From IMG/VR virus record IMGVR_UViG_2529292911_000009: a stretch of 44,421 nucleotides of DNA; one strand, written 5' to 3'. Positions 2,506 through 42,135 of the stretch are shown piece after piece (within the stretch, counting starts at the first letter, position 1; each line of letters starts with the position of its first letter). A program made the translations under genes and the position numbers. The DNA comes from a virus. Taxonomy: Duplodnaviria > Heunggongvirae > Uroviricota > Caudoviricetes. The notes beneath the pieces were generated by a model that was not told the origin of the DNA, searched no databases, and saw nothing but the letters and a program-made list of their open reading frames with translations.

Positions 2506-4512
2506 TTGCACATCAATTCTGTCGTTTGCGAAATTATATGCAATTGCGTTACTAACGCTTCCGGCATCATCATAATCGCGTTTCTGAATAAACCAGTCGC
2601 CAGCATTAGCAATGAGAGTATAAGTAGGCGTGTTAGCCGGGCGATCTGTTTCATTAAATCTTATTGCTGGGTTAGCGCTCCTTATTTGTAAAGGTTTTTC
2701 AACCGTGGATTTCAGTATCGCACTATCTACAATTAAATTACCTTCTGAGGTAAAGTCTAGATATTTTGTAGCACCAGTTGAACCACCGTATGTAAATCTT
2801 ATTGTTAATCGACCTTGCTCATTTGGAAAAGTCTGAACATACATATCAGCGGCAAGGCGCACAGTGTTGTCATTTGCTAACAGCCTCGTATGGAGCATTC
2901 CGCCAGTAGTGTATGCGCCAGTAGAATCACTAGTCCTATCGAGAAATAGACTATTAAGCTGAGGGCTGTTATCCCTGCCTAATCCAAGATTAGTTCTGGC
3001 ACCATCAATAGTTGCCGCACCAGTACCTCCGGCCGCGATCGAAAGCGGAATCCATCCGCTATTCTCTGCATCGAAATAACCCCATGTTCCTGAATCGTAG
3101 ATACCAAAAAATTTGCTTGCATTTTGACAATATACGCGTGTATTACCTGTTAGTTGAGTAAGCCTGTCCACTTCATCTTTTCTTGCGTGACGCGTCCACT
3201 GCGGGCCTATTGTCGGATTCCAGCGATAAGTATAAAGCGAGCGCGTAGCCCATCCCTGAAATACACCTGTATACGCTGGTGTTCCATCTACCTGACTAAT
3301 AAACCCCGTAAGACTGCTTTCACCGGATGCAATCGATGGAAAGCCTTTTGCATTACTCATAATGCGCATAAATCCGATATACCCTGATGGGTTGCCGGAA
3401 ATATCAGGACAATCACGCGGTGATGCCCCGAGGCCGATGCTGGTGCCTACAATCCCTTGCGCCTGGTTGCGATAATTAAGTGCGTCCGCTGCCGATTTCG
3501 CCGCGTTTGTTTCACTGGATTTAGCATTAGTTTCGCTGGCTTTAGCGTTGGTTTCGCTGCTCTTTGCTGCTGCCTCGCTATTTTTCGCGTTGGTTTCTGA
3601 TTTTTTGGCTGCTGTCGCGGAGTTTGCTGATGCAGTTTGTGAGTCTGCTGCCGCCTGTGCGCTGTTATCTGCATTCGTCTCAGACGTTTTTGCGGCCTTC
3701 GCGGAATTTCCTGCCGCCGTTGCCGAGGAAGCTGCACTACTGGCACTTGATGATGCGTTCGTTTCTGATGATTTCGCTGCCTCTTTTGAGGCCGACGCAT
3801 CCCGGGCTGAGGTGGCAGCTTCTGACGCCTTTGTGGTCGCTGCGGATGCAGAAGTGGCTGCAGATTTTTGTGACGCTGCCGCATTCGTTTCTGACGTTTT
3901 CGCGGCACTGGCACTGGTAGCTGCCGCGCTTTTTGAGGACTCTGCAGCAGCAGCACTTTTCGATGCTTCACTGGCCTTTGTTGATGCCGTTCCTGCGCTG
4001 GAAGACGCTGACTGAGCCGACGACGCGGCCTGTCCGGCTGACGTGCTGGCTGCGCGTGCTGAGCCTGCAGCATCAGTCGCATGGGTTGCCGCCTCACGGG
4101 CTGATGTGCTGGCATCACTGGCTGACTTCTTCGCGGCTGCCGTGTTCTGTGCCACCACGGACGCGTTACGCGCCACCTCTTCCACCATCAGTTCAAAACG
4201 GCGCAGAGCCTCCGGACGGGCATCATCCTCCGTCATGGCACCGAGAAAATCATTCAGCGTACCCGGTTGTGAGTCTTCATACACGGTGATGATCCCGGCA
4301 TGCGATGGCGGGAAGCCTTCCACCAACAGAATAACGCTGTACTGACCGTACTCAACGTCCATGCTGTAACGCCCGGCTTCATCCGGATTTTCAGATGCCA
4401 CCGTGTTCACCACCACCGTGGTGCTGTTACGTTTTGCTTTCAGCTGGATTGTGCAGTTCTGTACCGGTTTACCTGCACCGTCTTTCAGTACACCTGAAAT
4501 TTTTACTGCCAT
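2497..4512 (-). CDS. stf: side tail fiber protein (lambda Stf-like), N-terminal 671 aa
   Basis: N-terminus MAVKISGVLKDGAGKPVQNCTIQLKA matches the conserved Stf start. Long Ala/Ser/Thr-rich region with KSSETNA heptad repeats. True ATG at 4512 preceded by GGGGTGA; the ORF-track start at 4518 is a GTG. Confidence 0.85.
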   Translation of the reverse strand: MAVKISGVLKDGAGKPVQNCTIQLKAKRNSTTVVVNTVASENPDEAGRYSMDVEYGQYSVILLVEGFPPSHAGIITVYEDSQPGTLNDFLGAMTEDDARPEALRRFELMVEEVARNASVVAQNTAAAKKSASDASTSAREAATHATDAAGSARAASTSAGQAASSAQSASSSAGTASTKASEASKSAAAAESSKSAAATSASAAKTSETNAAASQKSAATSASAATTKASEAATSARDASASKEAAKSSETNASSSASSAASSATAAGNSAKAAKTSETNADNSAQAAADSQTASANSATAAKKSETNAKNSEAAAKSSETNAKASETNAKSSETNAAKSAADALNYRNQAQGIVGTSIGLGASPRDCPDISGNPSGYIGFMRIMSNAKGFPSIASGESSLTGFISQVDGTPAYTGVFQGWATRSLYTYRWNPTIGPQWTRHARKDEVDRLTQLTGNTRVYCQNASKFFGIYDSGTWGYFDAENSGWIPLSIAAGGTGAATIDGARTNLGLGRDNSPQLNSLFLDRTSDSTGAYTTGGMLHTRLLANDNTVRLAADMYVQTFPNEQGRLTIRFTYGGSTGATKYLDFTSEGNLIVDSAILKSTVEKPLQIRSANPAIRFNETDRPANTPTYTLIANAGDWFIQKRDYDDAGSVSNAIAYNFANDRIDVQKS

Positions 4513-4520
4513 ATTCACCC

Positions 4521-19348: not shown

Positions 19349-20531
19349 CGGATGGTTTCGTGGTCATGTTCATCGGTGTGAGATAGACATCCCCACCGGG
19401 ACGCGGATTCATATCTTCCAGGTCGCGGCAGTCATTGGGAGAGTAAATTCCCCAGTTGATCCCGGTGGCGTAGGCTTCAAAACGGGACTTCATATCCCCG
19501 CGCAGTAACGCCCCGGCGTTAAATTTGGCGTAATAAACGCCCTGCTTACTTTTTCGTACCAGTCCGGTGTTGATCCGCTGTTCGATGCGGGTCAGATACG
19601 GCACCAGTGAATAGTTGATAAATCCCAGCCCCAGCTCTTCGATATTGTTGAAGGTGGCGCGATCGGTGTTCTGCACCATGTGCAACGGCACCCGGAACAG
19701 ACGACAGATTTCTTCAAGCTGAAACTTGCGGGTTTCCAGGAACTGGCTGTCCTCGGCGTTCAGCGCCATCGACTTCCAGTCCAGCCCCATCTCAAGGATC
19801 ATCGGGCGGTGAGCATTGCCAAGCCCGGTGTGACGCTCCTCAAAATCTTTCTTCAGGCGCTCATAAGCCTGATCCGACAGCGTCTGTTCTGTACGCAACA
19901 CACCGGACGTCACCGCACCATTGCTGAACAGTCTGGCCCCGTGCTCTTCGGTCGCTGCTGCCAGCGATATTGCCTCGCGGGCATAGGCGATGGGATTCAG
20001 TCCCACCAGACCGTCCAGCGTCAGCGTGCGCACATGCCAGATATCTTCCTGGCTCAGTACATCCGTGGAACCGTCCGGGAATGTGACCTGATAGACCGGC
20101 TCCCAGCGACTGTTAAGCTTCGGTACCACACAACCGGGATCGACGGGCAGCAGTTCAGCCACTTCGCCAAATGCTTTCACTTTGTAGGCGTAAAAGTTTC
20201 CCCTCAGGCACAGACAGGTGACCACCAGCTCCCAGAACTCCTGCGGCGTCATATAGCCATTGGGATGCGTGGAGATCAGCTTATGCAGACGTTCGCCGGT
20301 GGCTCTCTGTTTCAGGCTGCCGTTCAGGTGATACAGATTGCAGGGCAACATCCCGACCGACTCTGCTAGCACTCTGACGCAGGAAAAAACCGCCGTCAGT
20401 CGCATGGCCCGCTGACTGCTGATCTGCTTTCCGGTATAGGTGTCGTAAGACAACCCGATGGCATCCGCCAGCTCTGCTGGCGTGGTCACCGGCGCGTCAC
20501 TTTTTCGTTGAAATAATCCCGAAAAGAACAC
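19290..20531 (-). CDS. portal protein (HK97 family)
   Basis: 413 aa, directly downstream of terminase large subunit; acidic C-terminal tail. Confidence 0.85.
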   Translation of the reverse strand: MFFSGLFQRKSDAPVTTPAELADAIGLSYDTYTGKQISSQRAMRLTAVFSCVRVLAESVGMLPCNLYHLNGSLKQRATGERLHKLISTHPNGYMTPQEFWELVVTCLCLRGNFYAYKVKAFGEVAELLPVDPGCVVPKLNSRWEPVYQVTFPDGSTDVLSQEDIWHVRTLTLDGLVGLNPIAYAREAISLAAATEEHGARLFSNGAVTSGVLRTEQTLSDQAYERLKKDFEERHTGLGNAHRPMILEMGLDWKSMALNAEDSQFLETRKFQLEEICRLFRVPLHMVQNTDRATFNNIEELGLGFINYSLVPYLTRIEQRINTGLVRKSKQGVYYAKFNAGALLRGDMKSRFEAYATGINWGIYSPNDCRDLEDMNPRPGGDVYLTPMNMTTKPSDGSKAGKQKDNANADETTS

Positions 20532-20713
20532 TATTTACCTCCGCCGACAGACGGCTGTGTACGGTCGAGATATCGCGCCACCAGCCACGACCAGAACAGG
20601 CACAGCACCCCGGCAACAACAAAACCCGCCGGGGGATAAATCAGCCAGGCACCATACGCCAGCAAAAGCGCACCCAGCACGCCCACCAGTGGCGCGAGAA
20701 TTATCAGAAACAT
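20531..20713 (-). CDS. small two-helix membrane protein
   Basis: 60 aa, two hydrophobic segments, GAGG RBS, packed tightly between TerL stop and portal start. Confidence 0.5.
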
Positions 20714-20724
20714 AATGACCTCGG

Positions 20725-22482
20725 TTAAAGCGAACGGATGCCCACGCTGACCAGATGTTCAGACAGATCCAGCTCCGGTTCACCACCATTGACCAGCATC
20801 CGGCTCATTGCTGTAAACATCGCAACAGGGCCGTCGATTTTGGCTTCCAGCGTGGATTTATTCGGGAAGATATTGTCGTTTTTGTCCGGTTTTACCGTAA
20901 CGTTAGACATCATCCAGTTCATGACCGGATGATTGCTGTGATGGAAACGCCCGGCATAGACCAGTGATTCCGTTTCCTTCATGGCCTCTGACAGATTGCG
21001 AACCGTCTGCGGAACCTCCACCAGCGGTATCCCTTCTTCAGCCAGTGCCAGGCTGAACTGCATCGCGCTCCACGGGTCAAATCCCAGTTCCCTGAGGTTT
21101 TCACCACCAATCCATTCCAGTAAGTCACTTTTTATCTGAGCATGATCGATAACATCACCATCCGTCAGAATCAGCTTATCCATCTCCGCCCACTTCCGGT
21201 AAAGTTCTGCCTGCTGCCGCGAGCATCGTTCCAGCCGTCCTTCCGGAAGCCAGAATTTAAAATCGGCATGAACATGCCCGTTATCCGTTCGCCAGAGTTT
21301 TGCCGCCGCACAGATATCAATCTTATGAGCAAGGTCAACGCCGACCCACATGGGATACGTTTTCAGCTCATGTCGTGGGGCAATGTATTCGCACTTCTCC
21401 CACTTAATCATGTCCATCCAGGCAGACTCTGCTGTTACCCACACATTCATGTGTTTGGTAAAAAAATTCACCCGCGCAGAGACCTGTTCTTTCGCTTTTT
21501 TCGCCAGGCGACGCAGATCATCCCAGCGTTTACAGATGCCCAGGCCGGGATTCGCTTTCTGCCAGACCGTTTCATCAAACGGATCATCTCCCTCATCGAG
21601 GGTGTAAATAATCGCAAAGTAGGAGTCGTCTTTTACAGCGCCCTCCACATCGCTGTTATAGCCACGCAATACCTTGATGGCGTAATCACGCTGCTCGTAA
21701 CAAATCCCTTCCTTGTTAAACCCTGCCGTGGTGATACCAAATAACAGGGACTGCAGGCGGGCACCGGTTGCCGTTTCCAGAACGTCCCACACGTCGCGGG
21801 TTTTATGTGCATGCAGCTCATCAATAATGGCGCAGTGGATGTTCAGACCATCCAGGTTGTTTGCATCCGAGGAAAGCGGTTCAAATTTTGATGCGCTCTG
21901 CTCCTGGTAAATCGCCAGCTTGTTGAAATCAAACAACCGCCCGAGTGTCGACCGGGCTTTTCTGACCATATTTTTGGCGTCTTCAAACACAATTCTGGCC
22001 TGGTCACGCGTGGTGGCGGCTGAATACACCTCAGCACCGCCTTCACCATCTGCCCCCGTCATATACAGGCCGATACCCGATGACAGAGTTGATTTTGCGT
22101 TTTTACGGGCGACTTCGTTGTACGCCGTCCGGAACCGGCGCACCATCACCGGACGTCCGCTGCCATCGCTGCGCATGACAACTTCCCCGGTCTCTTCATT
22201 CACCAGCGGAATGACAAAACCAAAAATATTAATGAGGATAAATACATGCCAGTCCATCAGTTCAATGGGCTGGCCTGCCAGCGCCCCTTTTACATGAGGC
22301 ACAAATTTGTAGAAATTCAGGATGTGCTGCGCACGGGGTTCACTGAAATAAATCCCCCGCTCTTCGCCGTACTTCAGATCATCAAGAAAACGCTGGCAGG
22401 CCAAGCGGACAAATTCGCCAGCAACAATTTCTCCTGCAACAACACGTTCGGCGTAGCGGATCCCGTCAGCCACTTTTGCCAT
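20725..22482 (-). CDS. terminase large subunit
   Basis: 585 aa with Walker B-like IIDELH and a nuclease-like C-terminal half; follows TerS. Confidence 0.9.
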
Positions 22483-23884: not shown

Positions 23885-24094
23885 ATGACAAGCTTTAATA
23901 TAAATTTAAATGTAACAACAAAGGTTGAAACCATTTCTGACGTAGCTTTAGAAATTTCCCGTTTAAAAGTTACGATTGGAATATTATTGGCTAAACTACC
24001 TCCAGAACAGCGTGATTCATTCATTGCAGATCTAAAAGGCGTCGGGCTTAATGAAGAGGCCAGCTTATATAGTAATTTCAACCCAAAGATATAA
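23885..24094 (+). CDS. small hypothetical protein (moron-like, plus strand)
   Basis: AT-rich ORF opposite to the flanking operons, with AAGGA RBS and a strong downstream terminator. ATG choice among 23879/23885 is uncertain. Confidence 0.5.
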   Translation: MTSFNINLNVTTKVETISDVALEISRLKVTIGILLAKLPPEQRDSFIADLKGVGLNEEASLYSNFNPKI

Positions 24095-24115: not shown

Positions 24116-24152
24116 AGCGGGGAGGGAGCACCTCCCCCCTTTTCTTTATTTG
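24116..24152 (+). terminator. intrinsic terminator
   Basis: GC hairpin ggggagg...cctcccc followed by TTTTCTTTATTT. Confidence 0.7.
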
Positions 24153-24332: not shown

Positions 24333-24512
24333 TCACTGCATACACTGCCGGATGCCATCAATCAGTTGGCAGGCCTGAGAAGCAGCGTCAAAAAACTGGC
24401 GCGCCTTATCCAGGCTAACGCATCCCGCCAATAAAAAAGGCACCAGTATCGCTACCAGTGCCCATTTCGCCGCCGTTCGCGGCATTCTGTGTGTCCAGTG
24501 TTTTCTGCTCAT
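24333..24512 (-). CDS. small lipoprotein at the end of the lysis cassette (possible o-spanin-like or exclusion lipoprotein)
   Basis: Basic N-terminus, hydrophobic core WALVAILVPFLL, lipobox LAG-C, mature part about 29 aa with 3 Cys. AGGTG RBS. Confidence 0.55.
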   Translation of the reverse strand: MSRKHWTHRMPRTAAKWALVAILVPFLLAGCVSLDKARQFFDAASQACQLIDGIRQCMQ

Positions 24513-24526
24513 AACACACCTGGTTA

Positions 24527-24910
24527 TCAGCGTTTCAACTGAAAGTGAGGCCCGTCTTTCAGTGTTTTCCAGTCCCCGCCCCATTCGATGGCAGTTCCCA
24601 GCTCTGCGGCAGCCTGCTTAAATGCCTGCGCGATTTTCTCGTACAGAGGCCAGTCCCATGACACCTGGCTGCCAATGTAGGCCACAACATCCACCGCATC
24701 ACCGGTCAGGTGGCGGCTGTTCATGGTCTGGCTTTTCCCTTCCGCGACCAGCTGTTTCTGGCGATACTTACTGCGCAGGCCTTCCGTAATACCGAAATCA
24801 ACCTCCGTCAGTTCCAGCGCACGGCGAACGACAGCAACCAGCTGTGGTTTGACGCCCTCCAGATTCTTTTCGCTGCGACGACTAAATCTGAATTTACCCG
24901 ACATACTCAC
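24527..24910 (-). CDS. endolysin, peptidase M15 family (L-alanyl-D-glutamate peptidase-like)
   Basis: Zinc-site motifs SRHLTGDAVD and DGPHFQ; 127 aa; lies downstream of the membrane-protein genes. Confidence 0.75.
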   Translation of the reverse strand: MSMSGKFRFSRRSEKNLEGVKPQLVAVVRRALELTEVDFGITEGLRSKYRQKQLVAEGKSQTMNSRHLTGDAVDVVAYIGSQVSWDWPLYEKIAQAFKQAAAELGTAIEWGGDWKTLKDGPHFQLKR

Positions 24911-25185
24911 CTCAACAATGGAAAAATTCTTGCGACGTTCCCGCGTGCGCGTATTACCAGCACGCAGAACAGCAGATTAAAAAACACTTCCAGCCAGCCC
25001 GTTGCTAATGGGCGACCACACAGATAGCTGAGGGGCGCAAAGGCATACAGCAGCATCAGCAGCCAGGCCAGCCATGACATCAGCGGTTTATGTCTGGAAT
25101 CACGGCGACGATAAAAAAAGAGCGTCAGCACGATAACCGTGCATAACGCCACATTCAGCAATCCGGGAAGGTTACTTAACATTGC
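24907..25185 (-). CDS. lysis-associated membrane protein (holin or antiholin candidate)
   Basis: About 92 aa with 3 predicted transmembrane segments; overlapping start/stop with neighbours. Confidence 0.5.
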   Translation of the reverse strand, partial: AMLSNLPGLLNVALCTVIVLTLFFYRRRDSRHKPLMSWLAWLLMLLYAFAPLSYLCGRPLATGWLEVFFNLLFCVLVIRARGNVARIFPLLR

Positions 25186-25564
25186 CGCCTCCTCCACCCC
25201 GCAGGCGGGAGAACAGGCCGGACACCAGCGATGCAATATCCTGCTGGTGGATGAACGACAGAATCTTCACCGACACCACTGACACCAGCACTGCACACAA
25301 TGCGTCGACAGGCGCTCCGTCAAACCCTGTATGCTTTACCAGCCAGGATGCCAGAACCTCTGCGCCCAGCACACCGATAATGAACGACACCAGAAAATGC
25401 GCCGCCACACGCCAGGCTGAAAGCGCCTGCGGCATCGTTGCCACAAATAACGCCCCGGCGAACGCACCAAACACAATCCCGAAATCCGTTCCGGTAAACA
25501 ACCCGTACACCGTCGCCCCGCCGAGCGCCGCAGCCGTGCCGGAACCGGATAAGGGTTCAGACAT
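25172..25564 (-). CDS. putative holin
   Basis: About 130 aa with several hydrophobic helices and a Gly-rich charged C-terminus; first gene after the late terminators; AGGAG RBS. Start taken at MSEPL. Confidence 0.5.
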   Translation of the reverse strand: MSEPLSGSGTAAALGGATVYGLFTGTDFGIVFGAFAGALFVATMPQALSAWRVAAHFLVSFIIGVLGAEVLASWLVKHTGFDGAPVDALCAVLVSVVSVKILSFIHQQDIASLVSGLFSRLRGGGGGNVK

Positions 25565-25580: not shown

Positions 25581-25606
25581 ATAAAAAAGGGCCACCAGCG
25601 GCCCGT
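25581..25606 (-). terminator. intrinsic terminator immediately upstream of the lysis genes
   Basis: Minus strand gggccgctggtggccc hairpin followed by TTTTTTATTT. Confidence 0.7.
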
Positions 25607-25923: not shown

Positions 25924-25954
25924 GAATAAAAAAACCGCCCGATAGAGGCGGTTA
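25924..25954 (-). terminator. intrinsic terminator downstream of the tRNA array
   Basis: Minus strand aaccgcctctatcgggcggtt hairpin followed by TTTTTTTATTCTG. Confidence 0.75.
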
Positions 25955-26220: not shown

Positions 26221-26295
<75 letters not shown>

Positions 26296-26298
26296 ATA

Positions 26299-26374
<76 letters not shown>

Positions 26375-26376
26375 AC

Positions 26377-26453
26377 TGGACCGCCACCGGGGACTCGAAC
26401 CTCGCACACTCAACTTAAAGGGTTGACGCTCTTTCCTGATGAGCTAGTGGCGG
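26377..26453 (-). tRNA. tRNA-like gene, anticodon loop CCUUUAA (nominally Lys UUU), atypical
   Basis: Cloverleaf can be drawn (acceptor CCGCCAC/GTGGCGG, D stem GCTC/GAGC, T loop TTCGAGT, CCA) but it has C at position 33, C1-G72, U73 and one T-stem mismatch. Confidence 0.45.
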
Positions 26454-26454
26454 C

Positions 26455-26530
26455 TGGTGGCCCTTGCTGGATTTGAACCAGCGACCTGGCGATTATGAGT
26501 CGCTCGCTCTCACCACTGAGCTAAAGGGCC
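26455..26530 (-). tRNA. tRNA with CAU anticodon, ileX-like (tRNA-Ile2 lysidine type) or Met
   Basis: Acceptor GGCCCTT, anticodon loop CUCAUAA, T loop TTCAAAT. Closely resembles E. coli ileX as recalled. Confidence 0.7.
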
Positions 26531-26724: not shown

Positions 26725-27420
26725 TCAATCTACTTTTGCAACACTTTGCTTTGAAAATGCCGCCTTTTGTTTTGAACGTGTTCTCATTACAAACAATAAA
26801 GCCTCACTATCAAGTCGGTGAAAAATGTGTTTCATTGCAACCCAGTGACGAGTAAATGTTTTGGACCAGTTTTTAGTTGTCACTCCCGCCAGTAATGCCA
26901 GCTCCTGGTATTCATAACCTTCCCCACCAAAAAGTTCTGCTTTTAATGCCTGCGCCGCCAGCCAGATTAATTTTTTCAGGCGTTCCTGCGTTTTCCCTGC
27001 AATTTTTCTGGTACCGGATTGAGTATTAAATTCATTCCACGCCCACTGTGTTATCGCGATCTGATATTCCCAACAAATACTCCCGCTGTAACACCACAAC
27101 AACCAGGCTTTATGATGTTCTTCAAGAGACAGAACTGCCCGTCGCCATGATGATGTCGAAAACTCAACCTGACTTACCAGAGCAATTGATGAGCCTTTCG
27201 CCAGTGATTGTTTTCCCGGTATCGGTGGACTATCCCGCGTTATCATTCTTCCAGTCACTTCATCGCGGTACCGGATTTTTTTACGCCTGTAACGCCCTGT
27301 ATCAAACATGGCATTCTCCTGCCAGGCTTCAAGCTGACCTTTTGTTGCCCCACTCAAATCAGCGGTAGCGATAATGAGCTGCTCACGCACAAACTGTAAA
27401 TACTGGTTATTCATGCGCAC
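26725..27420 (-). CDS. putative late-gene antiterminator (Q-like)
   Basis: 231 aa, between rusA and the late terminators/tRNAs/lysis genes, the canonical Q position. Family not confirmed from sequence. Confidence 0.45.
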   Translation of the reverse strand: MRMNNQYLQFVREQLIIATADLSGATKGQLEAWQENAMFDTGRYRRKKIRYRDEVTGRMITRDSPPIPGKQSLAKGSSIALVSQVEFSTSSWRRAVLSLEEHHKAWLLWCYSGSICWEYQIAITQWAWNEFNTQSGTRKIAGKTQERLKKLIWLAAQALKAELFGGEGYEYQELALLAGVTTKNWSKTFTRHWVAMKHIFHRLDSEALLFVMRTRSKQKAAFSKQSVAKVD

Positions 27421-29408: not shown

Positions 29409-29801
29409 CTACTGCCCTGTTTTAACGAAGTTTTTAAAGGAAACAACTGCCTGATAGGGGTTTGGTTGACAGCCAAACATATTATCGCAAAAAGGCTTGA
29501 TGAAAATTCTTGAGGATCCATCTTCATTTGGCATTTTACTCACTTGATAAGCGAGGAATGGACTATTTGGAGAGGGATTATAAGTGGAAATTAGCGTGTC
29601 TGTCGCCGTTTGAATTTTCCATGAGGAATTATTAGCCAACCAGAATTGCGCTCGTTTCCAATAAAAGTCACATTGCTTTTCATCATTACATGTTAGTGGC
29701 TTCATTGCTTCTGCTTTCAACGCTGGATCGACCTTTGCTGCACACCCTCCCAACATTACTGTTGCAATCATTACACCTGCGACTAAAACAAGTTTCTTCA
29801 T
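29409..29801 (-). CDS. lipoprotein (moron candidate)
   Basis: Signal peptide MKKLVLVAGVMIATVMLGG-C with lipobox, Cys-rich mature domain, AT-rich codon usage unlike neighbours, terminator downstream. Confidence 0.6.
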   Translation of the reverse strand: MKKLVLVAGVMIATVMLGGCAAKVDPALKAEAMKPLTCNDEKQCDFYWKRAQFWLANNSSWKIQTATDTLISTYNPSPNSPFLAYQVSKMPNEDGSSRIFIKPFCDNMFGCQPNPYQAVVSFKNFVKTGQ

Positions 29802-40907: not shown

Positions 40908-41111
40908 ATGAGCAGCTTATTTTTAACCGAAGATGAATTGCTAATATTAACGGGCTGCAAATATGCAAGCCACCAGCGAAAATGGTTAATGGAAAACGGG
41001 CTTCCGTTCTATACCAATCGTAGTGGCAAACCGATTGTCAGCCGGGATCTATTTACCTGCAATAAAACTTTACCACCACGCGAGGTAGAGCCGAATTTTG
41101 GTGCGATCTGA
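40908..41111 (+). CDS. excisionase-like protein
   Basis: 67 aa ORF immediately upstream of, and translationally coupled to, the integrase gene. Confidence 0.55.
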   Translation: MSSLFLTEDELLILTGCKYASHQRKWLMENGLPFYTNRSGKPIVSRDLFTCNKTLPPREVEPNFGAI

Positions 41112-42135
41112 TGGGAAGACGAAGGAAAAATCCTGAACACGAAAAATTACCTCCAAATGTATACCCAAATAAATATAGTTATGTATGGAAACCAACATCC
41201 AGAGAATCTGTCACACTAACCGCCATCAAGGATGGTTTAGCTGCTTTATGGAAAAAGTATGAGGAAACTGTAAATAATCGCGATCGTGCAATGACATTCG
41301 GTCGCTTGTGGGAAAAATTCCTCGCCAGCGCCTATTACAGTGACCTTAGTCCAAGAACACAAAAAGATTATCTGCAACATCAAAAAAAGTTGCTTGCCGT
41401 ATTCGGTAAGGTACCAGCGGATTCCATAAAACCAGAACACATCCGTCGATACATGGACAAAAGAGGGGAGCAGAGTAAAACGCAAGCCAACCATGAAAAA
41501 AGCAGTATGTCCCGTGTTTACAGTTGGGGGTATGAGCGAGGGTACGTGAAGGCTAACCCATGTGCAGGTGTAAGTAAATTCAAGGCCAAAAACCGCGAAC
41601 GATATGTAACCGACAAAGAATACCAGGCAGTATTAAGCGTTGCACCTCTTCCTGTTTTTATCGCAATGGAAATTGCCTATCTGTGTGCAGCGAGGGTTTC
41701 CGATGTGTTATCGCTGAAATGGGAACAGATTGGAAACGACGGGATATTCATCCAGCAAGGGAAACCGGAAAAAAACAGATAAAAGCATGGAGTCCACGAT
41801 TACAGGCAGCGATCGAAAAAGCAAAACAGTTACCAAAATCTGCCTATGTGATCAGCAATCAATACGGCAACCGATATATGTACAAAGGCTTTAACGAAAT
41901 GTGGGTAGATGCAAGAAATCGTGCTGGAAAAATTTCAGGTATTTTAACCGACTTCACCTTTCATGATCTGAAGGCGAAAGGAATTTCAGACTATGAAGGA
42001 AGCAGCCGGGATAAGCAACTTTTCTCTGGTCACAAAACCGAAGGGCAAGTGCTAATCTATGACAGGAAGGTTAAAGTTTCACCAACACTTGATGTCCCGT
42101 TACCTGAAAATATTCCAAGAAAATATTCCAAGTAA
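41111..42135 (+). pseudogene. int: tyrosine integrase, frame interrupted by a single-base deletion in a short A run
   Basis: ORFs 41111..41782 and 41683..42135 are one integrase in two frames. Restoring one A near 41762-41764 gives IFIQQGKTGKKQIKAW, a typical integrase motif. True pseudogene or sequencing indel. Confidence 0.75.

Follow-up and report, generated by a model that had tools for sequence, protein, structure and literature searches.

Spanins and disruptins are the phage proteins described as disrupting the outer membrane of Gram-negative hosts. In two-component spanins, an inner-membrane subunit (i-spanin) with an N-terminal transmembrane (TM) segment and a periplasmic domain is paired with a lipoprotein of the outer membrane (o-spanin), such as Rz1 of phage lambda, LysC of P2, or PseT.2 of T4. 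The unimolecular spanin gp11 of phage T1 unites an N-terminal lipoprotein signal with a C-terminal inner-membrane TM segment in a single gene, and the disruptin gp28 of phage phiKT is a cationic peptide that takes the place of the spanins (bioRxiv 10.1101/515445). Colicin lysis proteins are lipoproteins of small size encoded by the last gene of their operon, and they activate phospholipase A. The mature part of these proteins and of other bacteriocin release proteins (BRPs) is shorter than 35 amino acids (aa).

Here, we analyzed the lysis cassette in 44,421 nucleotides (nt) of DNA from a member of the Caudoviricetes (IMG/VR record IMGVR_UViG_2529292911_000009; the whole stretch is referred to below as the window). 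The cassette ends with a gene for a 59-aa prolipoprotein that shares with Rz1, LysC, and PseT.2 its small size, a lipobox, a predicted outer-membrane location, conserved periplasmic Cys residues, and a place after the endolysin at the end of the cassette, but that differs from all two-component spanins in having no i-spanin partner. We propose that this lipoprotein is an outer-membrane-disrupting lysis factor that would work without a phage-encoded i-spanin, a reading that we judge to have about an even chance of being correct.

The cassette comprises four genes on the minus strand, namely hol8 (25564..25172, 130 aa), hol3_7 (25182..24907, 91 aa), an M15 endolysin gene (24904..24527, 125 aa from its ATG), and the prolipoprotein gene (24512..24333), and all four open reading frames (ORFs) lie where an earlier note on this DNA had placed them. 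The two membrane-protein genes overlap by 11 nt, while gaps of 2 nt and 14 nt separate hol3_7 from the endolysin gene and the latter from the lipoprotein gene. A Shine-Dalgarno-like sequence accompanies each of these three junctions (GGAGGAGG in the case of hol3_7), and the four genes are translationally coupled.

The prolipoprotein (MSRKHWTHRMPRTAAKWALVAILVPFLLAG followed by CVSLDKARQFFDAASQACQLIDGIRQCMQ) consists of a 30-aa signal peptide, whose n-region is long and basic, and a 29-aa mature part, and it carries Cys residues at mature positions 1, 18, and 27, i.e., the predicted lipidated Cys31, Cys48, and Cys57; the size and the three cysteines agree with the earlier description. The lipobox is LAGC without Asp at position +2, and throughout the family it reads LAGC or LVGC with V, A, S, T, or G, but never Asp, at +2. 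In Escherichia coli, the Lol sorting rule sends lipoproteins without Asp at +2 to the outer membrane, and an outer-membrane location is therefore predicted. The protein matches phrog_7528 (E 7.6e-35), a PHROG family of unknown function and the only one found, and has no match in Pfam, NCBIfam, or PADLOC. Below threshold, the closest matches were to the Rz-like phrog_6073 (E 0.032), QseG (E 0.087), and DUF7442 (E 0.13), and none of 15 family members matched a Pfam model at E<=1, Lysis_col and Entericidin included. Homologs from E. coli, Salmonella, Citrobacter, and Yersinia form 117 clusters at 90% identity. When 1.84 billion representative proteins were searched with a profile, only 22 members came up, all of the same small lipoprotein family, and the search gave no link to any known o-spanin family, while a scan of one genome per species found the lipoprotein in Salmonella enterica and Citrobacter braakii only. 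The family is narrow and enterobacterial.

Within this family, selection has acted on the protein. The ratio of nonsynonymous to synonymous polymorphism (pN/pS) is 0.23 for the lipoprotein gene and 0.21 for its mature part, compared with 0.26 and 0.33 for the two holin genes and 0.13 for the endolysin gene. Because of this ratio, the match to phrog_7528, and the 117 homolog clusters, we conclude that the lipoprotein gene is a real gene, on which purifying selection acts as it does on the rest of the lysis cassette, and not a chance ORF. The same data bear on whether it could be the functionless remnant of an o-spanin that has lost its partner. The non-significant likeness to phrog_6073 would fit such a remnant, as would the occasional family members with a mutated lipobox Cys or a truncation (e.g., P0010, P0084, and P0090). 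However, a pN/pS of 0.21–0.23 is on par with that of functional lysis genes, the family alignment shows no variation at the lipobox Gly-Cys, C48, and C57 even at 36–56% identity, and the gene is kept in at least four combinations of cassette genes and in 378 of the complete E. coli genomes, all of which makes a vestige very improbable.

A partner of the i-spanin type was sought in and around the cassette. Neither the cassette nor its two flanks in the window hold an ORF whose product would combine a TM segment at the N-terminus with a periplasmic domain, the same-strand embedded and out-of-frame ORFs of the cassette encode no TM segment or lipobox, and the cassette region showed no lysozyme, no transglycosylase, and no i-spanin/o-spanin pair. 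The small ORFs found downstream in relatives encode soluble proteins and were rejected as i-spanins for that reason. A search of the entire window for a second lipobox ORF returned only an unrelated protein of 130 aa from the early region upstream of the antiterminator gene Q (29801..29409, minus strand), which starts with MKKLVLVAGVMIATVMLGGC followed by AAK and belongs to no Pfam family. The lack of a recognizable Rz/Rz1 pair, first put forward in the earlier note, is thus borne out by the embedded-ORF search and also by the prophage of strain CV839-06, which is 98.9% identical to the window and whose annotation by the PGAP pipeline includes no spanin.

One published record nevertheless speaks for a pair. 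For the Stx2e phage phiP27, a survey of spanins listed a "separated" pair that consists of an i-spanin at 20348–20542 (64 aa with 32 periplasmic residues) and an o-spanin at 20706–20861 (51 aa), the shortest pair in that survey and one whose o-spanin forms a singleton family (Kongari et al. 2018, PMC6139136). The listed o-spanin is a true homolog of the window lipoprotein (79% identity), which on this view would be the o-spanin of a canonical Rz/Rz1-like system with its i-spanin encoded nearby. The listed i-spanin ORF, however, lies within an insertion of ~470 nt that the window lacks, as do 86 of 88 related loci. Its start codon is TTG, and it is situated (L001, NC_003356, 3314–3508, minus strand) wholly antisense inside a 90-aa gene (3252–3524, plus strand) that matches phrog_36812 (E 5e-20) and is 46% identical between phiP27 and a second locus, L064. 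In the latter, the supposed i-spanin is shortened to 36 aa, and it matches no PHROG family. Because of its place in the insertion, its antisense position to a conserved gene, its shortening, and its lack of a PHROG family, we regard the phiP27 i-spanin as probably spurious, a false positive of the spanin database. Since the window has no other ORF with an N-terminal TM segment beside the lipoprotein, a canonical two-component spanin is extremely improbable here. The earlier note had held that a standard spanin pair would speak against a lone lipoprotein; formally, the phiP27 listing supplies such a pair, but as the listed i-spanin is absent here and antisense there, the lone-lipoprotein point stands and emerges strengthened.

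The arrangement seen in the window is widespread among its relatives. The lysis cassette ends with the lipoprotein gene in all of the 88 loci, and this gene often overlaps the preceding one by ATGA or follows it at a distance of less than 20 nt. It directly follows the endolysin gene in 53 loci, as in the window, whereas 32 loci have one or two small TM ORFs in between and an opposite-strand gene is inserted in the two loci of the phiP27 type; the remaining locus (L058) begins 12 nt upstream of the lipoprotein gene and offers no upstream context. The genes in front of it vary. Besides the combination of hol8, hol3_7, and M15 endolysin in the window and 48 of the 88 loci, the lipoprotein of divergent members follows hol8 and hol3_7 with a GH108 muramidase and an ATGA overlap (Yersinia L083, L086, and Mu-like L096), a lambda-S-type holin with an M15 endolysin (L088 and L090), or a lambda-S-type holin with a GH108 muramidase (L092 and L094). 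The packaging genes of these phages are of the P27, Terminase_2, GpA, or Mu type, and their tail genes vary as well. Because the lipoprotein stays constant while endolysin, holin, tail, and packaging genes change, it belongs to the lysis module without being tied to a single endolysin chemistry, holin family, tail, or receptor, which leaves a generic envelope function. A role as partner of one of the two holins was rejected on the ground that the lipoprotein also occurs behind single holins of the lambda S family, and a role as endolysin-specific regulator on the ground that it follows M15 peptidases and GH108 muramidases alike.

In other phages, the position taken by the lipoprotein is occupied by spanins. 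A P2-like phage with an M15 endolysin that shares 79% identity with that of the window has this slot filled by an i-spanin and an o-spanin matching LysC (PF23793, E 1.2e-13), and the same holds for the chiWXYZ locus of Serratia, with a LysC-type o-spanin. By this comparison of gene order, the lipoprotein sits in the spanin slot. The chiWXYZ locus of type 10 secretion, the P2-like M15 cassettes, and the window all share the order of holin, M15 enzyme, and outer-membrane component, but the former two have an overlapped i-spanin (DUF2570-like) and a Pro-rich LysC-type o-spanin where the window has one unrelated lipoprotein. The likeness of the endolysin to ChiX had suggested that the lipoprotein might be a homolog of ChiY; this idea was discarded since the chi locus encodes an overlapped i-spanin of the ordinary kind along with a LysC-type lipoprotein.

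The small TM ORFs between endolysin and lipoprotein (e.g., L019 3826–3999, L030 3826–3999, and L066 3662–3844 and 3862–3996) could encode lysis regulators or partners of the lipoprotein. They encode 57–60 aa (phrog_4493/1115) and sometimes 44 aa (phrog_4906), and these PHROG families are of unknown function. If they were partners, the ancestral system would have consisted of the lipoprotein and one or two small TM proteins, and the copy in the window would now use a host protein or a holin as partner or would be crippled. It fits this scenario that the ORFs are members of recognized phage protein families and abut the start of the lipoprotein gene in 32 of the 88 loci, behind either type of endolysin. 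Their products have a basic N-terminus and a C-terminal TM segment with no more than 8–11 residues beyond it, however, and thus have neither the topology nor the periplasmic domain by which i-spanins are defined. The direct order of endolysin and lipoprotein is, moreover, the majority arrangement and is also seen in the most divergent members (Yersinia, Mu-like, and lambda-S-type cassettes), and purifying selection on the lipoprotein is equal in both arrangements. A reduced two-part system is, on balance, quite unlikely.

A function outside lysis has to be weighed too. Small phage lipoproteins with exclusion roles are known, e.g., Cor, Llp, and Bor. The lipoprotein could accordingly be a moron-like accessory protein that serves superinfection exclusion of the Cor/Llp kind, receptor masking, or some other benefit to the lysogen, while rupture of the outer membrane would need no dedicated protein. 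Morons are often sited downstream of lysis genes, one of them adjoins the cassette at 23885–24094, and 91 of 677 surveyed genomes (~13%) of phages of Gram-negative hosts had no identifiable spanin (PMC6139136). Against this explanation, the lipoprotein gene has no promoter of its own and is coupled in translation to the endolysin gene, and it moves with the lysis module among differing tail and packaging modules, contrary to what a receptor-specific function would demand. The link to one receptor or tail module that characterizes the exclusion lipoproteins Cor and Llp was not seen, and neither the PADLOC defense models nor the Pfam families of the Bor/Cor type gave a match. We therefore consider an accessory role unlikely.

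The predicted structure of the lipoprotein differs from those of the described systems. AlphaFold2 modeled a single helix over residues 12–58 with moderate confidence (predicted local distance difference test score, pLDDT, 69), in agreement with the 83% helix reported for the phiP27 homolog (Kongari et al. 2018, PMC6139136). The mature peptide has a net charge of 0 (family consensus −1), a hydrophobic moment of 0.4–0.5, and a hydrophobic seam whose residues follow a heptad-like spacing (L34, A37, F41, A44, C48, and I51), and the protein ends in a polar C-terminus (...GIRQCMQ). With 29–30 aa, the mature part is predicted to be helical and is Pro-free in the window, whereas those of Rz1 and LysC are Pro-rich and measure 40–70 aa; the lipoprotein matches neither of their Pfam models, and its helix is far shorter than any characterized spanin. 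The single gene in the spanin slot and the N-terminal lipoprotein signal are reminiscent of T1 gp11, but the only hydrophobic segment of the window protein is its signal peptide (residues 14–32), and a second segment that could correspond to the C-terminal TM of gp11 is missing. With the disruptin gp28, it has in common that one small, helical, amphipathic protein is the proposed outer-membrane breaker of a spanin-less phage. However, gp28 is cationic and not lipidated, while the window protein has a lipobox, a net charge of 0 to −1, and moderate amphipathicity. The likeness to colicin lysis proteins or BRPs (Lysis_col) and to entericidin B is limited to size, lipidation signal, and last-gene position, as there is no sequence similarity (E<=1), and the colicin lysis genes stand in a bacteriocin operon rather than in a holin-endolysin cassette. 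BRPs have a stable signal peptide, of which the unusually conserved signal peptide of the lipoprotein is reminiscent. The conserved periplasmic cysteines, finally, may be a parallel to the disulfide requirement of the spanins (PMC6139136).

On the reading that we favor, hol8 and hol3_7 would permeabilize the inner membrane at a set time, and the M15 endopeptidase would be released from the cytoplasm to cut the stem peptides of the peptidoglycan. The lipoprotein, with its 29-aa helical mature part and its two conserved free cysteines, would then disrupt the outer membrane in the absence of a phage-encoded i-spanin. Several mechanisms can be envisaged. A lipid-anchored, disulfide-linked amphipathic helix could destabilize or fuse the outer membrane once the wall is gone, fusion could occur locally once a bulge of the inner membrane meets the outer one, or the protein could act like the small colicin-release lipoproteins. 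More tentatively, and in our view rather doubtfully, it may represent a third kind of outer-membrane disruptor besides the spanins and the disruptin, and one that is self-sufficient, i.e., a minimal lipid-anchored helix without any inner-membrane partner from the phage. In one variant of such self-sufficiency, the protein would resemble the colicin-release proteins, for instance by activation of phospholipase A, and its unusually conserved signal peptide would be functional. In another, an uncleaved precursor in the inner membrane would pair with the mature form in the outer membrane through the Cys-containing helix that both share.

Several points weigh against the proposal that the lipoprotein breaks the outer membrane without a phage i-spanin. 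The evidence for its role in lysis is its position in the cassette and is circumstantial. The modeled helix of 29 aa would measure ~4 nm and could not span the periplasm, and we know of no o-spanin that acts in the absence of an i-spanin. Whereas gp28 is cationic, the mature peptide carries no net charge, and there is no similarity to spanin, colicin-lysis, or entericidin families at E<=1, the Rz-like match within PHROGs (E 0.032) aside. The small TM ORFs of 32 of the 88 loci are possible partners that may have been lost from the window. In addition, this copy of the prophage may be defective or unable to excise. In the window, two overlapping ORFs make up the split integrase gene beside tRNA-Ser (41111–42135, plus strand), and in the prophage of strain CV839-06, the integrase is marked as frameshifted and the tape-measure gene is frameshifted too.

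The other three genes of the cassette are of ordinary kinds. The product of hol8 matches PF16931 (Pfam Phage_holin_8, E 2.8e-22) and the holin family phrog_198 (E 7.8e-43), is named "putative holin" by PGAP, and shows three strong hydrophobic segments in addition to a weak Gly/Ala-rich one at the N-terminus. That of hol3_7 matches PF05449 (Pfam Phage_holin_3_7, E 2.3e-22) and the holin family phrog_217 (E 6.2e-39). It has three hydrophobic segments, a basic loop between TM1 and TM2 (RRRDSRHK), and a basic C-terminus, and it is predicted to adopt an N-out/C-in topology like that of class I holins, with the TM1–TM2 loop and the C-terminus in the cytoplasm. Because a single holin of the lambda S family stands in for both proteins in relatives, the pair behaves as one functional unit. 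A literature search found no functional study of Phage_holin_8, Phage_holin_3_7, or the 59-aa lipoprotein. In one relative, phage phiSTEC1575-Stx2k (L099), a class II holin gene and an adjoining ORF (3951–4515) lie upstream of the hol8, hol3_7, and M15 genes and may be what is left of a second lysis cassette, or else form an additional one.

The endolysin is an ordinary member of the M15 (LAS-type) zinc L-Ala-D-Glu endopeptidases, which are marked by the motifs SxHxxGxAxD and DxxH. It matches PF13539 (Peptidase_M15_4) above the cut-off (E 1.6e-12) and the endolysin family phrog_465 (E 5.6e-75), and it aligns over its full length with PDB entries 23ri and 8q2g (both E ~1e-43), ChiX (5opz, E 8e-43), and the T5 endolysin (2mxz, E 1.5e-23). 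The zinc and catalytic motifs are complete when aligned with 5opz, 8q2g, and 2mxz (SRH65-LTG-DAV-D72 and D117-GP-H120 in the 125-aa numbering; the start chosen in the earlier note, GTG at 24910, would give 127 aa). With a maximum 19-residue Kyte-Doolittle hydropathy of 0.94, the enzyme has no signal or signal-anchor-release (SAR) segment. Because no hydrophobic segment is present, it is of the canonical non-SAR type and depends on a holin for export. The fold family, motifs, solubility, and lack of a signal are all common to the T5 endolysin and the other M15 endolysins, from which no notable difference was seen. The earlier note was therefore right to recognize an M15 peptidase, as the domain match and the motif residues aligned with ChiX and T5 confirm, but its term "noncanonical" does not suit this enzyme, whose M15 endopeptidase homologs occur as endolysins in 1013 phage records, T5-like and T4-like phages among them. 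Nor does it suit the holins, as the cassette is that of phiP27, a sequenced Stx2e phage.

A further conserved element lies within the lipoprotein gene. A consensus scan detected a terminator-like hairpin at 24463..24429 (minus strand; GGGCACTGGTA-GCGA-TACTGGTGCCT followed by TTTTTTATT) with an 11-bp stem and a T-run, which covers codons 17–27 of the signal peptide. Across 51 unique homologous genes, synonymous change within the hairpin is almost nil, and a rare codon for Ile, ATA, does not vary; conservation is higher over the entire signal peptide than over the mature peptide. Divergent lipoprotein genes retain a hairpin at the same site, some with paired changes. It is missing in the Mu-like member L096; the part of this locus that was read has genes for Mor and GemA but none for Q. 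Because covariation was not significant (63–94 of 500 shuffles reached the observed values), we regard the hairpin as a conserved stretch of sequence that may form a structure, and it may be a terminator that is overridden by Q.

The surroundings of the cassette are those of a lambdoid prophage. Upstream lie a gene for the Q antiterminator (26725..27420), four tRNA genes, and two terminator-like hairpins, and downstream a moron that is encoded on the plus strand and has a separate terminator, an HNH gene, and a terminase gene of the P27 family; in view of these neighbors, the late operon of a phiP27-like lambdoid E. coli prophage starts with the cassette region, and transcription would run from a Q-dependent late promoter. 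The first of the hairpins (25589..25604, minus strand; GGGCCGCTGGTGGCCC followed by T6) is 25 nt upstream of the hol8 start and is a probable Q-antiterminated terminator of the late operon, and a second such site is found at 25953..25933 (minus strand). The tRNA genes (26221–26530, minus strand) are situated between Q and the lysis genes and specify Gly-UCC, Thr-UGU, Lys-UUU, and one tRNA with a CAU anticodon that is assigned to Met by ARAGORN and to Ile by PGAP. An Ile(CAU) tRNA would read AUA, the rare codon that is fixed in the hairpin of the lipoprotein gene. The moron-like ORF between the cassette and the HNH and terminase genes (23885–24094, plus strand) encodes 69 aa (phrog_6806, unknown function), is variable among relatives, and is followed by a strong terminator of its own (24119–24137, plus strand).

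The cassette is 94% identical to that of phiP27 and 100% identical to sequences in several E. coli chromosomes, with matches in 378 of 5426 complete E. coli genomes. Cargo genes differ among its carriers. In phiP27, stx2e occupies the position of the tRNA genes of the window. In two other loci (L049 and L055, 1675–2820), genes for A (253 aa) and B (127 aa) subunits of a heat-labile-enterotoxin-like protein are inserted inside the lysis cassette itself, between the second holin gene and the endolysin gene, which agrees with the match to the SerU-LTIIb phage and is a parallel, in the same cassette type, to stx2e in phiP27.

While the cassette and its enzyme were known already, and the lipoprotein family had been catalogued once as one half of a spanin pair, comparison of the loci now indicates that the listed partner is probably spurious and that the lone lipoprotein is the rule across several cassette types. 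The record of a two-component spanin in phiP27 is corrected accordingly, and the case illustrates that heuristics which combine an ORF with a TM segment can mask spanin-less cassettes. The lipoprotein would constitute a new class only if its autonomy is confirmed; if it does act alone, it would offer a compact tool for permeabilizing Gram-negative outer membranes. Disruption of the outer membrane is the least understood step of phage lysis, for which this family may provide a minimal system of a single gene, carried in a cassette that is present in ~7% of complete E. coli genomes and that also releases the Stx2e and LT-II toxins.

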